A DNA stretch of 64,000 bases, from NCBI RefSeq assembly GCF_051903065.1, contig NZ_CP178438.1; one strand, 5' to 3'. The first letter of the stretch is position 1. Each line of letters opens with the position of its first letter. The notes below the pieces were generated by a model. The model saw nothing but the letters and a program-made list of their open reading frames with translations. It did no database searches and was not told where the DNA came from. The DNA comes from Escherichia coli. GTDB lineage: Bacteria > Pseudomonadota > Gammaproteobacteria > Enterobacterales > Enterobacteriaceae. Positions 39,783-52,113 of the stretch are shown one piece after another. Position numbers and translations under genes: made by a program.

Positions 39783-39881
39783 ATGAGCGGTAAGCGTTAT
39801 CCCGAAGAGTTTAAAATTGCAGCGGTAAAAATGTTGCTTACATCTATCTGGCATCAGGAAAATCTGTGCCCAAACGGGTAA
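39783..39881 (+). pseudogene. IS3-family orfA N-terminal fragment
   Basis: MSGKRYPEEFKIAAVKML... typical IS3-family OrfA start, terminates after 32 codons. Confidence 0.4.
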
Positions 39882-40009
39882 TCCGCACACAATCGCCTCA
39901 ACAACTGGACAGGCTCTGAGGCCAATATAATAGTCAGGTTCCGATTGTGCAGGTGCAACCTGTCACCATTTCTCAGTACGCTGCAACTTTTGCTGGCAGG
40001 GGATTAATT

Positions 40010-41026
40010 TCACACTACCTGATATTCGGTCTCATTTCCCAGCATCGACCAGATTATTCGCGCGTTTTTGTTAGCGACCGCCACGGTCGTTTTATTAAAT
40101 CCGCGCCGTTCCTTTAACTGGTTAACCCACTGATTAATATGACTATCATTGTTATTCGTGGCATCCCTGACGACAGCTCGGGCACCATGAATAAAAAGTG
40201 TTCTCAGATGCTTGTCGCCTTTTTTCGTCATATTCATCAGCACCTGCCTGTAGCCACTCGAATGCTGGCGTGGAACCAGACCCAGCCATGCAGCAAAGTG
40301 GCGGCCATTCTTAAATTCAGTTCCTTTGCCAATAGCAGCAACAACGGCCGTGGCCGTTTTAGGGCTAATACCTTTAACTTGGGCGATACGCTGACAGGCT
40401 TCTAATTGCCTGAATACTGTTTCAATTTCCTTATCAAAAAAATGGATCCGACGCTTGAGATCGTTAAAGAGATCATAGAGTTCGGCAATCGTCCTGCGCA
40501 TTCTAACGCTAAGACCATTTTCAGCATCTTCAAGGATAAGCGGTACAGCACGACTAACTCTTGAGACTACCGCGCCAATTGGTTATTCCCCGATCAAGCA
40601 GCAGTCCCCGGATTTGACAGACTGTCGCAGTACGATGATTGACAATACGCTGTCTTGCACGGTGCAGAGCCTGAATATCCTGCTGTTCAGGGCTTTTCGG
40701 TGGAACAAACTGCATCGTAGGTTGCATCAGACCCACAGCAATCGCCTACGCATCGTTACCATCATTTTTTGCCCTCGGACAAAAGGTTTTACATATTGGG
40801 GGCTGATGACTTTTACGTTATGACCCAGTTTCTCAAACTCACGCTGCCAGTAAAATGCCCCGGTGGACGCTTCGCTCCCAATCAGACATGCAGGAATATT
40901 TGCCAGCGTCTGGAGCAATTCTTTTCGGCCAGTGCGTTTCGTAAAAACCGGTTTACCGGCCTAGTTTAACCAGCAGATCTGAAAAACATTTTTAGCCAGA
41001 TCAATACCCAGAAATACGATCTTCAT
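40010..41026 (-). pseudogene. IS110-family transposase pseudogene (one in-frame stop, two frameshifts)
   Basis: Minus strand from 41026: MKIVFLGIDLAKNVFQICWLN then TAG; continues in ORFs 40727..40918, 40554..40736 and 40010..40501 in shifted frames. Confidence 0.75.
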
Positions 41027-41335
41027 GGTGATTCTCCTGGTGAACACATTTCGTATAGTTAACCTTAGAGGGAGGAGGTAGTCCATCCCATTAACTGGAA
41101 GTCCAGATATGACGGCATAGAAAAAATCAAGGTTCTTAAGGACAGAACCACCGTCTCAAACAGATGTTTGCTGACCTGAGTCTGGAAAACCGGGGGCTGA
41201 AAGACATTATCAAAAAAGCTTTAAAACCAGCCTTTAAGCGTGAGCTGGTCACTCATCTGATAATGTAGTGGCACACTAAATTTGGCCACCTGATGAAAGG
41301 TGATATTCTCACCACAACACAAAACAGGTGACTTA

Positions 41336-41647
41336 ATGAACAAGAAAACCAAACGAACCTTCACCCCTGAGTTCAGGCTGGAATGTGCACAGCTGATTGT
41401 TGATAAGGGCTACTCATATCGACAGGCCAGTGAAGCGATGAATGTCGGTTCAACCACGCTTGAGAGCTGGGTACGCCAGCTCAGGCGAGAGCGCCAGGGT
41501 ATTACGCCCTCTGCCACACCCATTACTCCAGACCAGCAACGTATCCGCGAGCTGGAAAAGCAAGTTCGCCGTCTGGAGGAACAAAATACGATATTAAAAA
41601 AGGCTACCGCGCTCTTAATGTCCGACTCGCTGAACGGTTCACGATAG
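41336..41647 (+). CDS. IS911-family OrfA
   Basis: [38 protein letters not shown]...[15 protein letters not shown], close to IS911 OrfA as recalled. Confidence 0.85.
41596..41602 (+). promoter_or_regulatory. A6G slippery heptamer for programmed -1 frameshift (orfA to orfAB)
   Basis: AAAAAAG near the end of orfA where orfB frame begins, as in IS911. Confidence 0.5.
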
Positions 41648-42034
41648 CCGCCAGACTAAGTGACAGCCACACGGTTGTCAGCCTGTGTTCTGCTCTGGAA
41701 ATACACCGCAGCAGTTACCGGTACTGGCGAAAACGACGCGATACGGTTAATCCGGCACGAGTCAGGTTGTGCAGCGAAATACGCCGGGCGTGGAACCAAA
41801 GTCGGGGCTCTGCGGGCGCGCGCACTCTGGCTGAAATGCTGACCCAAAACGGCGTCCCGATGAGCCGTTATCGTGCCGGACGGCTGATGAAATACCTGAA
41901 CCTGAGCAGTTGTCAGCCCGGAAAACATCAATACAAAAATGCCTGTCAGGAGCATACGTGTTTGCCGAATCTGCTCGAGCGTCAGTTCGCTGTACCGGAG
42001 CCAGACAGGGTATGGTGCGGAGATATTACGTATA

Positions 42035-49662: not shown

Positions 49663-49930
49663 AATCTACTTGTCTACGTTGTTGGAGTGAACATATCAAA
49701 AAACGGCAATTACACAATTTAAATTACAGTCTCTATGAGAACAGTTCAATTTTTTAACTCTCGTTTTCCTCCCTGGCGTTATATGCATAAGCAACTTGAA
49801 AGACCCGATGATAGTTATAATTTCAGGTTATGTCCATGACGACCAATTTGTAACTAAAACAATAAACGGTAACGCTGCCATATAAGCATCAAAAGCGAGC
49901 ATTACAGCAACATTCAACCGATTAGATGTA

Positions 49931-50371
49931 TCACTCATAATCAGAACAAGATGATGATGTGCCCTGAGATATAAGAAAATCATCAAGAGAACCTCCGGCT
50001 TTTATTGCTTCTGCAATAACAGAAGGCCGACGACCTTGTCCACTCCAGTACATTATTTGACCGTTATACTCATACCTGTACTTATTAGACTCTCCTGAAT
50101 CGTTTTTTCTGCCCGTCTGTAATTTTTTGCCAAATTCACGATACACATCTTCCGCCGTTACACCTGCGTCATCCATGTACTTTTTGATAATTGCCAAAGA
50201 ATCCTTCAACTCATTACGCTGCTCAATGGCCTTTTCAAGGTTATCCTTAACTTGATTGAAGTCTTCATCAGACATTTCCATGATCAACTTCCGGACAAGG
50301 TTGGAATTAAGAAGTGATGTACGAACAGTAGAGAGATCTTCATTCTCAACAGAAAACTTCTTCTTGCTCAT
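49931..50371 (-). CDS. H-NS-family nucleoid-associated protein
   Basis: C-terminal DNA-binding motif YWSGQGRRPSVIAEAIKAGGSLDDFLISQ resembling the H-NS TWTGQGRTP...SLDDFLIKQ region. Confidence 0.7.
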   Translation of the reverse strand: MSKKKFSVENEDLSTVRTSLLNSNLVRKLIMEMSDEDFNQVKDNLEKAIEQRNELKDSLAIIKKYMDDAGVTAEDVYREFGKKLQTGRKNDSGESNKYRYEYNGQIMYWSGQGRRPSVIAEAIKAGGSLDDFLISQGTSSSCSDYE

Positions 50372-50546
50372 CTATCAATACTCTGCTTATCATTAACTTA
50401 TGATAAATCCTATCAGGTGATTTTTTATAAAAATAATGGCTACATCACAAAATGTGATACTTAATATTTACTTCATTCAAAGTGAGTGAACTTTCCCGGA
50501 TAGGCTAGCCCCCTGAATCTCCAGTCAACCAATATCACTTAAATAA

Positions 50547-51247
50547 GTGATAATCTTAATATTAGTTTTTAGACTGGTCATTGGAAAACAGATGATTGAT
50601 GCCTCAGGACCGGAGAAACTCAGACGGCATACTGCACAGGAAAAGATCGCTAATGTTCAGAAGAGCTTTGAACCAGGAATGACGGTCTCCCTCGTTGCCC
50701 GGCAACATGGTGTAGCAGCCAGTTACTTCTCTGGCGCAAGCAATACCAGGAGGGAAGTCTTACTGCGGTGACTGCTGGGGAACAGATCGTTCCTGCCTCT
50801 GAACTTGCTGCTGCCATAAGGCAGATTAAAGAACGCCAGCGCCTGCCCGGAACAAAACGATGGAAAATGAACTCATTAAAGAAGCCGTTGAATATGGACG
50901 TGCAAAAAGTGGATAGCGCACGCTCCCTTATTGCCGGGGTGATGCACTGGGCGGTCACTACCGGCGGCTTCAACAGTGAAACAGTACAGGACGTCATGCC
51001 AGGAGCGGTGGAACGCCGCTTCGGCAACGAGCTTCCGGCGTCTCCAGTGGAGTGGCTGACAGATAATGGTTCATGCTACCGGGCTAATGAAACACGCCAG
51101 TTCGCTCGGATGTTGGGACTTGAATCGAAGAACACGGCGGTGCGGAGTCCGGAGAGTAACAGAATAGCAGAGAGCTTCGTGAAAACGATAAAGCGTGACT
51201 ACATCGTGTTCATGCCCAAGCCAGATGTTAATGACGGCATTGCATAA
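50547..51247 (+). pseudogene. IS2 remnant (frameshifted insC, internally deleted insD)
   Basis: ...[39 protein letters not shown] then frame change; later ...[49 protein letters not shown]. Confidence 0.7.
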
Positions 51248-51499
51248 CCATGCAGTAGCAATCGAACATTACAATGCAGCATAGTTCTAAGTTATCGCTC
51301 GCCGCAGGTATATATGCGGCAGCGGATCAGTAATGGGTTAAATGATAACAGATGTCTGGAAGTATAGGGAGAAATTCCCTGAGGGATTCCCAAAAAATTT
51401 AGTAAACCAATATCATATTGGTATACCGTTGTTGTAAAATGTTCAGCCCTGCGTCAAGTGACAAGGTGTTTAGTATGAGTGGGGAATGTCGGAACCTGT

Positions 51500-52113
51500 T
51501 TAGGATTCTGTGTAAATGCCTTTTTTCAGAAGTGACAGGCAGTCACCGAACTCGATAATAAAGCGGCTCATTGCCATACACCTGTCCTTCAACGACACCG
51601 TCCATTTCTGGGACGCAGACTGGATTGCCAGCCACACCACTTTTTTCACCGAGTCGTCTGTCGGGAACACTTTACGCTTTTTGATCGCATGGCGGATCAC
51701 ACTGTTTAGTGACTCGATGGCATTCGTCGTATAGCGCACTTTGCGAATGTCCGTCAGATAAGCGAAGAACGTGGTAAGATTCGGTCAGTTAGCCTGCCAG
51801 CTCCGACTTATCTAGTGCTTGCTAGCCTGTCTCTTCCGTGGGTGCCTGATTAAATCTCTTTCAGGTCGCGAGTGACGGCTTTGTAGTCCTTCCATGACAC
51901 GAAGCGCAGGCTGTTGCGCACCATATGCACGATGCATAACTGGATGCTGGCCTCCGGATATACTGTGTTGATGGCATCTGGAAAGCCTTTCAGGCTATCT
52001 ACACAGGTGATGAGGATATCGTTCAGACCGCGGTTTTTCAGTTCAGTCAGCACATTGAGCCAGAACTTCGACCCTGTACACGATTCTGTGTGAAACAACG
52101 GGGAGCAGGTCAT
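51500..52113 (-). pseudogene. IS256-family transposase middle and C-terminal fragment
   Basis: ...[54 protein letters not shown] and ...TNAIESLNSVIRHAIKKRKVFPTDDSVKK in two frames. Confidence 0.7.

Follow-up and report, generated by a model that had tools for sequence, protein, structure and literature searches.

The stretch of DNA analysed here (the window, 64,000 nucleotides from Escherichia coli) carries at positions 39783-52113 a dense cluster of insertion sequence (IS) remnants, which was very probably built within a leuX-type genomic island by elements inserting into one another, was trimmed by deletions and has mostly been passed on as a block instead of being rearranged in this strain. 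Mobile DNA makes up about 59% of the segment and comprises nine elements, two of them intact (the IS3-family element IS3-A and the group II intron inside it) and seven decayed, i.e., an IS3-family left-end stub (IS3-C), an IS110-family pseudogene, a second IS3-family fragment (IS3-B), an IS285-like element, an IS21 5' remnant, an IS2-like remnant and the 3' half of an IS1414. Counting the IS2-like remnant of the right module, the IS3 family is represented four times, its other three members lying in the left module. Reference IS copies were matched at the nucleotide level with E-values of 1e-15 to 0, far beyond chance. The segment matches the reverse strand of the E. coli GDSC2BY4G chromosome (NZ_CP136025.1) at 100% identity; the annotation of that chromosome by the NCBI Prokaryotic Genome Annotation Pipeline (PGAP) already covers most of what the original prediction, made from the letters of the sequence, had listed. 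The tRNA-Leu(CAA) gene (leuX) lies in the window at 18845-18929, followed by a tyrosine recombinase/integrase, and the segment occupies the part about 21-33 kb into the island. An assembly artefact was considered and rejected, the junctions being identical in many independent complete genomes.

The matter of rearrangement turns on two IS256-family pieces in the right-hand part, one N-terminal (49535-49733) and one covering the middle and C-terminus of the transposase (51485-52075). Both do exist as the original prediction had described them, which took them for a single IS256 copy that had been broken, with its pieces reordered and probably inverted. Such a reading has some appeal, since both pieces lie on the minus strand, in an order that a single copy would not show, and cover non-overlapping parts of the transposase (amino acids ~1-43 and ~215-400). 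We compared them with three intact IS256-family references, namely IS1414, the copy on Salmonella pCFSAN000661 (WP_020833591.1) and the IS285-type copy on Y. pestis pMT (WP_002209743.1), identity between IS1414 and the IS285-like pair reaching only 73-75%. Pieces of one copy should be similarly identical to one reference, and these are not: the C-terminal piece matches IS1414 at 87.5% including gaps (~94% of aligned bases) and the Salmonella and Y. pestis copies at only 68% and 70%, whereas the N-terminal piece matches IS1414 at 69% and the other two at 87% and 81%. Furthermore, the N-terminal piece has a right end of its own, the terminal ~54 bp of an IS285-like element, lying, unnoticed in the original prediction, at 49003-49056 in matching orientation and 480 bp away, and an inversion would have flipped the strand, yet both pieces are on one strand. 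The reciprocal discordance and this right end therefore point to two separate elements, with no inversion or reordering needed; judged by the alignments, an independent IS1414 left its 3' half as the C-terminal piece, and the N-terminal piece is IS285-like. The very alignment that the original prediction had named as its refutation was thus obtained, and a single copy broken and inverted is hardly credible. A query concatenated from both pieces was also tried, in search of an intact IS256-family element joining them, and was rejected: it retrieved only IS1414, at ~83% overall, and the split comparison showed the discordance.

The IS285-like element keeps both of its ends (49003-49733). With the intact IS285-type elements of Y. 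pestis pMT and Salmonella it shares the left 199 bp and the right ~54 bp at 81-87% identity, the terminal repeats matching; unlike them, it is without ~1 kb of interior and carries the IS21 remnant in its place. Its N-terminal piece has no Pfam match, but its nucleotide matches include the left inverted repeat (GAGACTGTAATTT...GTGTAATTGCC), and it reaches 94% identity to fragments on Shigella pINV plasmids; no closer intact relative was found, these 94% matches being fragments too. The original prediction was right that an IS21 helix-turn-helix (HTH) fragment (49057-49534, +) adjoins the IS256-family N-terminal fragment (49535-49733, -); on its other side, the IS21 left terminus (TGTCAG...) at 49057 directly adjoins the IS285-like right end. 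In comparison with the IS21 of pUTI89 (istA/istB, ~2130 bp), the remnant is 95-100% identical over nt 1-209, 347-593 and 955-981, the left terminus and the IstA HTH included, and differs in that only 478 bp are left, istB and the right end being absent. Since the set of features that marks the family (istA plus istB, multiple terminal repeats) is incomplete here, what is left counts as a piece of an IS21 copy and not as an element in its own right. In strain MB51 and on plasmid CP057032.1, IS21 nt 1-735 and 955-981 are kept between the same outer junctions as in the window, which relative to them has additionally lost nt 210-346 and 594-735. Repeated deletion, as originally proposed, is borne out by this series, and repeated insertion by direct nesting: IS21 in the IS285-like element, the IS110-family element in an IS3-family element, and the intron in another IS3-family element.

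As a side observation, the first 26 nt of IS21 (49057-49082) are identical at 19 of 26 positions to the Salmonella IS285-like continuation at the insertion point (2835-2861 of the stretch compared). This likeness may be due to chance or to a preference of IS21 for targets resembling its own end.

The 3.5 kb at 41264-44791, overlooked in the original prediction, are occupied by IS3-A with its intron. Joined, the two IS3-A exons give 1258 bp with 0 mismatches to the intact copy of strain COL60J, listed by PGAP as an intact transposase with programmed frameshift. In the spliced form orfA, the TTAAAAAAG slippery site (A6G-type) and orfB are all open, and the fused transposase scores 357 bits against NCBIfam transpos_IS3 (cut-off 160; profile positions 1-368 of 369) and carries the Pfam domains HTH_Tnp_1, HTH_21 and rve. 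The terminal inverted repeats are of the TG...CA type (TGTAGTGGCACACTAAATTTGGCCAC / GTGGCCAATATTACTTGACCACTACA), and the length fits the ~1.2-1.5 kb of the IS3 family. Both the pair of open reading frames (ORFs) with frameshift and the terminal repeats and length thus place IS3-A in that family.

COL60J and AH25 preserve the exact empty site of the intron, being colinear with the window across 42034/44305, so that the intron is a 2270-bp insertion; joining the exons there restores ...DITYI/WAGNRW..., with the intron in the sense orientation of orfB. Its ends (GTGTG at 42035, ...CTAC to 44304) fit the group II pattern of 5' GUGYG and 3' AY. Domains V-VI were recognized by Rfam Intron_gpII (RF00029) in the last 87 nt (44218-44304; 64.9 bits, gathering threshold 40; model positions 1-77 of 77), and for domains I-IV no D1-D4 model of Rfam matched. 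The intron-borne ltrA (42706-44214, 502 amino acids) is intact according to PGAP, its protein accession is widespread, and it matches RVT_1 (1.5e-34) and GIIM (1.3e-10) in Pfam and TIGR04416 (341 bits, cut-off 300). The intron is 99.6% identical over nt 1-1764 to K-12 ykfC, a truncated copy; copies 100% identical to it occur on plasmids, and an intron match is present in 2668 of 5426 complete E. coli genomes. The intron separates the DITYI codons from the W codon and lies in sense, so that RNA splicing could restore the IS3-A transposase. From their sequence, IS3-A and its intron appear to be alive. The label of graveyard originally given to the region is therefore apt for the seven decayed elements and not for these 3.5 kb.

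One may still ask whether IS3-A and its intron are dead as well, non-splicing and non-mobile, so that the whole interval would be a graveyard after all. IS3-A is without flanking direct repeats, and some genomes carry copies of the E.c.I4 intron with disrupted ORFs (PMC3522654). Against this, the sequence requirements are intact, including both inverted repeats, orfA, the slippery site, orfB, the 502-residue ltrA, the GTGTG...AC ends and domains V-VI; moreover, identity is 100% both between the intron and other copies of it and between the exons and an intron-less copy, which therefore leaves no time for decay. We consider a dead IS3-A and intron unlikely.

Several side observations concern IS3-A. 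In strain ECNB21-M121 the 3' exon of IS3-A contains another IS110-family element, which is intact (6474-7550 of the stretch compared). Homology with MB51 and AH25 starts at window position 41711, inside IS3-A, and in those two strains the left flank of this point is an outer-membrane-protein gene, not the YadA-like/IS110/IS3-B sequence; by this switch of flanks, IS3-A is a recombination or deletion breakpoint between island variants. In addition, the Rfam family isrC (150 bits, above threshold) matches IS3-A orfA at 41332-41454 (+), and isrN (42 bits, just below threshold) matches the IS3-A left end and IS3-B at 41223-41300 (-); these two families appear to have been built on IS3-family DNA. 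Apart from the sub-threshold isrN, the Rfam search for an IS110-associated RNA returned nothing.

To the left of IS3-A, the IS110-family gene (coding sequence 41026 to 40010) contains two in-frame stops and two frameshifts by tblastn and by three-frame reading against homologues, and PGAP likewise calls it a pseudogene ('frameshifted; internal stop'). The original count of two frameshifts is hereby upheld and that of a single nonsense codon raised to two; the N-terminal stop was called from the in-frame reading and the family consensus only. Its Pfam matches are Transposase_20 (PF02371, 1.1e-23) and, below the cut-off and on a 60-residue piece, DEDD_Tnp_IS110 (PF01548, 5e-5); homologues possess both domains, DEDD N-terminal and Transposase_20 C-terminal. 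The intact transposase ORF expected of an active IS110-family copy is not found at 39914-41092, and no full-length intact relative appeared among the best 120 matches to 40013-40501, all of which are at most 283 amino acids long, so this lineage seems, as far as the matched sequences tell, to survive mostly as truncated or pseudogenised copies. The first ~10 bp of the IS110-family stretch (39914-39923) may be left over from the IS3-B target.

IS3-B, which had escaped the original prediction and which PGAP labels 'IS3 family transposase, frameshifted, missing N- and C-terminus', is bounded on its left by the IS110-family element and cut off on its right by IS3-A at 41263/41264, with no target duplication. 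Strain GABEEC10 has an IS110-family pseudogene 82% identical to that of the window, with the same IS3-B junctions on both sides, and the insertion of IS110 into IS3-B orfA is therefore old. The left flanks of the IS110-family element differ: GABEEC10 has the N-terminus of IS3-B orfA (MCKARFTEHQ...), and the window has, by its translation, the unrelated IS3-C stub. The stub begins near 39720 and has its ATG at 39783 (MSGKRYPEEFKIAAVK...), with the frame broken after ~16 codons; over its first 116 bp it matches IS3-family elements of more than 2000 plasmids at ~89% identity, its Pfam HTH_Tnp_1 match is marginal (E = 0.015-0.036), and it carries no PGAP annotation. The IS3-family orfA stub of the original prediction is thus genuinely present. 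An uninterrupted IS3-B assembled from 39700-39913 and 41093-41263 was tried and rejected, as no record has both parts contiguous and the left piece belongs to an IS3-family element different from that of GABEEC10.

The right-hand block is shared far beyond this strain. Counting genomes with at least 80% of 48990-52127 in one place, we found it in 127 of 5426 complete genomes. Plasmid CP057032.1 (62 kb, non-mobilizable) carries IS1414-delta/astA, the IS2-like remnant, hns and IS285-like::IS21 with identical junctions, followed by the neighbouring yagK-like gene (177-3519 of the stretch compared). In ECNB21-M121, a YfjI gene between two Gp2/YagK-type genes stands in place of the span from IS285-like/IS21 to mrr (12761-14365 of the stretch compared). 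The debris is, accordingly, an inherited, variable cassette and not the outcome of decay within this strain. On the side of relatedness, COL60J is 99.98% identical to the window to the left of the intron site (38000-42034) and only 98.1% to the right (44305-54113), with the divergence concentrated at ~45.7-47.3 kb (UCP030791 92%, alpA 95%); this unevenness suggests recombination within the island.

Taken together, the course of events was very probably as follows. In the left module, an IS110-family element would have inserted into IS3-B orfA and decayed there; one flank of this pair would later have been replaced by the IS3-C stub and the other cut off by the still-intact 1258-bp IS3-A, into whose transposase gene an E.c.I4-type intron would have entered very recently, at the DITYI/W codons. 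In the right module, IS21 would have inserted ~54 bp from the IS285-like right end, a single deletion would then have taken the rest of IS21 together with ~1 kb of its IS285-like host, and two further small IS21 deletions would have occurred in this lineage; next in the module come the hns-like gene, the IS2-like element with its internal deletion and the IS1414 3' half with astA. The two IS256-family pieces would be the remains of two separate insertions, without inversion.

Two other accounts of the right-hand block have to be weighed against successive simple insertions. IS1414 and the IS285-like element could once have formed a composite-transposon-like unit that carried the hns-like gene and the IS2-like element, moved as a cassette, which would account for the plasmid copy, and then lost the outer parts of its two flanking elements. 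It is true that the right end kept by IS1414 and the left end kept by the IS285-like element both face the hns segment, the same block recurs on plasmid CP057032.1 and in 127 chromosomes, and YfjI replaces the stretch from IS285-like/IS21 to mrr in ECNB21-M121. Yet the two flanking elements are only ~73-75% identical, no shared target duplication was seen around the unit, both ends of the IS285-like element survive within 49003-49733, which is what a simple insertion of its own would leave, and the yagK-like gene following the block on the plasmid means that the transfer exceeded the block; we hold such a unit to be highly improbable. A broader reading of the same distribution would make the block from IS285-like::IS21 to the mrr-like gene a conserved, horizontally transferred cassette that takes the place of yfjI in a CP4-57-type module and persists through the genes it carries, for a xenogeneic-silencer paralogue, EAST1 and an Mrr-type nuclease, with the IS ends recruited to act as promoters or boundaries of hns and astA. 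This appears to us distinctly unlikely, though somewhat less so than the composite unit.

The preferred account, that of nested insertion, trimming and inheritance as a block, has points that weigh against it. No target-site duplications were found around IS3-A, the IS285-like element or the IS2-like element, so that the in situ insertion of each is something we infer; for IS3-A in particular, the 3-5 bp duplication sought at its ends is absent, the flanks being TAA and CCT. Lack of a duplication there is expected after IS-mediated rearrangement and leaves family membership unaffected, and some of the junctions may indeed have arisen by IS-mediated deletion or recombination. The order and age of events are read from identity to the nearest reference copy, a weak clock, and the splicing and transposition activity of IS3-A and its intron is predicted. 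Candidate exon-binding sites (EBS2 GTAATA at intron nt 325, EBS1 TATGCG at nt 365) pair with exon positions -11..-6 and -6..-1, respectively, with a palindromic motif that makes the pairing ambiguous, so that these pairings with the intron-binding sites are only suggestive. Finally, the intron is patchy, being present in GDSC2BY4G and MB51 and absent from COL60J and AH25, across islands with full and truncated IS3-A, which requires either repeated homing or exchange between IS copies.

The coordinates of all features are collected in Table 1.

Table 1. Features of the segment, left to right, with the evidence for each and, for intact genes, the ratio of non-synonymous to synonymous polymorphism (pN/pS) between the window and COL60J, MB51, AH25 and plasmid CP057032.1. 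IR, inverted repeat.
Feature	Position	Strand	Evidence and remarks	pN/pS
IS3-family left-end/orfA stub (IS3-C)	39720-39913	+	Sequence, translation, plasmid homology	
IS110-family element, pseudogene	39914-41092	-	Pfam, tblastn, three-frame reading, PGAP	
IS3-family fragment (IS3-B), mid orfA (..NWKSRY..RLKQMFADLSLENRGLKDIIKK..)	41093-41263	+	PGAP, homology to GABEEC10 and UTI89 IS3-family gene	
IS3-A 5' exon: left IR TGTAGTGG..., orfA (ATG 41336), A6G slippery site, orfB N-terminal part to ...DITYI	41264-42034	+	Identity to COL60J, NCBIfam	
Group II intron, E.c.I4-type (GTGTG...CTAC), 2270 bp	42035-44304	+	Empty sites, Rfam, Pfam, TIGR04416	
IS3-A 3' exon: orfB C-terminal part (W AGNRW...ANIT, then stop), right IR ...CCACTACA	44305-44791	+	Pfam rve, rve_3, rve_2	
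Non-IS module, CP4-57 type: ECs1377 family, UCP030791, small hypothetical, AlpA-type HTH, hypothetical, YagK/YfjJ-like (47554-48120)	44962-48120	-	PGAP, Pfam, NCBIfam	yagK-like 0.09-0.26; alpA 0.05-0.08; gene at 46734 0.10-0.42
IS285-like right end, ~54 bp	49003-49056	-	81-83% to right ends of Salmonella and Y. pestis elements	
IS21 5' remnant, inside IS285-like element	49057-49534	+	IS21 nt 1-209, 347-593, 955-981, including IstA HTH; Pfam HTH_23	
IS285-like left end and first ~43 codons (N-terminal IS256-family piece)	49535-49733	-	87% Salmonella, 81% Y. pestis, 69% IS1414	
H-NS-like gene, 146 aa, intact	49931-50371	-	Pfam Histone_HNS 1e-11; PGAP WP_000038139.1	Near-identical in all comparators, so uninformative
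IS2-like remnant	50501-51378	+	Both ends; IS2 nt 450-886 deleted (437 bp), frame broken; Pfam HTH_Tnp_1, rve	
IS1414 3' part, ~nt 690-1321 including right IR, internal deletions (C-terminal IS256-family piece)	51485-52075	-	87.5% including gaps to IS1414 (990-1621 of the stretch compared)	
astA (EAST1) ORF, 38 aa plus stop, intact	51861-51977	-	112 of 114 nt match IS1414 astA; peptide identical to prototype	
Mrr-like restriction endonuclease gene, intact, beside IS1414 breakpoint	52128-53006	-	Pfam Mrr_cat 1.3e-5; PGAP	0.05 (6 synonymous and 1 non-synonymous change vs MB51; 7 substitutions only)

Within the IS1414 remnant, which matches Pfam Transposase_mut (PF00872) twice (8e-23 and 7e-8), an intact astA had been overlooked in the original prediction. 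Its two differences from IS1414 astA are both synonymous. PGAP leaves astA without annotation in NZ_CP136025.1, where the IS1414 remnant is a pseudogene, and records with identical DNA label it EAST1. Divergence in astA is 2 in 114 bp, compared with 3.7% in the surrounding 214 bp, and there are more differences and deletions downstream; better conservation of astA than of the rest of the fragment is suggested by these figures, and we make no claim of it, as the sites are too few. Taken alone, the IS1414 fragment recurs at 100% identity in many lineages, O157:H7 and SMS-3-5 among them.

The IS2 remnant reported earlier is likewise there, aligning to nt 1-449 and 887-1328 of the K-12 IS2A copy at 89.3% and 87.0% identity, respectively. 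With an identity of only 87-89% to IS2 (1331 bp, insC/insD) we prefer to call it IS2-like, as it need not be IS2 itself.

The H-NS-like, Mrr-like and YagK-like genes were correctly recognized as intact, since all are open and match their families. The CP4-57-type module matches Phage_AlpA, YagK_YfjJ_C and REP_ORF2-G2P in Pfam and ECs1377_fam in NCBIfam, with pN/pS of 0.05-0.42. The hns-like gene, set against a 77%-identical paralogue, gave a ratio of non-synonymous to synonymous substitution rates (dN/dS) of 0.46, the DNA-binding C-terminus being almost invariant. Purifying selection on the intact genes is therefore plausible and modestly supported by pN/pS; the earlier argument that these genes are retained by selection by reason of their position among debris does not follow. 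Bearing on the same issue, ECNB21-M121 is without the whole span from the IS285-like/IS21 remnant through the mrr-like gene.

Outside the segment, the island carries further IS elements, i.e., an IS5 at ~23.5 kb, two IS1 at 33.2 and 37.4 kb and an IS630 fragment at ~36.0 kb. The IS1 copies (33215-33912 and 37390-38087) are in inverted orientation and flank a PDDEXK-like gene, two hypothetical genes and the IS630 fragment, so that a composite-transposon-like unit is possible just to the left of the segment. In the core-genome part of the window, Rfam matches at 11629-11802 and 12636-12830 correspond to two naRNA4 copies and Ysr276.

Beyond annotation quality these results matter little, as they describe a textbook nesting of mobile elements in a tRNA-linked island, most of it in RefSeq already. 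Nevertheless, comparing each fragment with reference IS copies guards against reading pieces of the same family as an inversion. IS3-A and its E.c.I4 intron are the only elements here that still look mobile by sequence, which would make them relevant to current genome instability, and the intact astA inside a PGAP-labelled IS1414 pseudogene is relevant to virulence-gene typing of this vegetable isolate.

Among known systems, the E.c.I4 intron is described as homing to specific positions in IS3-like transposase genes, namely those of IS629, IS911, ISEc16 and ISEc31, with a fragment in K-12 (PMC3522654, Leclercq & Cordaux 2012). The window intron resembles it in occupying, in the sense orientation, a fixed position of an IS3-like orfB, in its occurrence on islands and plasmids and in forming an intron-plus-IS tandem of more than 3 kb; it differs in that its host is designated only 'IS3 family' by PGAP, and its assignment to E.c.I4 was made via the identity to the K-12 fragment and the tables of that paper, not via a reference E.c.I4 sequence. 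IS1414 with an embedded astA (EAST1) was reportedly described by McVeigh et al. in 2000. The window copy is like it in that the 3' part bears astA in the -1 frame with the same peptide as the prototype, and unlike full IS1414 in that only nt ~690-1321 are left, with a 38-bp and smaller deletions and the two synonymous astA changes. Such decay is common, most astA variants sitting in IS1414 copies decayed by deletion or mutation (PMC12585946). As a whole, the region is ordinary for an E. coli tRNA-linked island, it is already known and its novelty is nil. With the mosaic islands of this kind (leuX; CP4-57/CP4-6-type) it shares the tRNA-Leu(CAA) gene and tyrosine recombinase, the AlpA-YagK/YfjJ module and the many IS remnants, and there is no essential difference from them, the gene content varying by strain.

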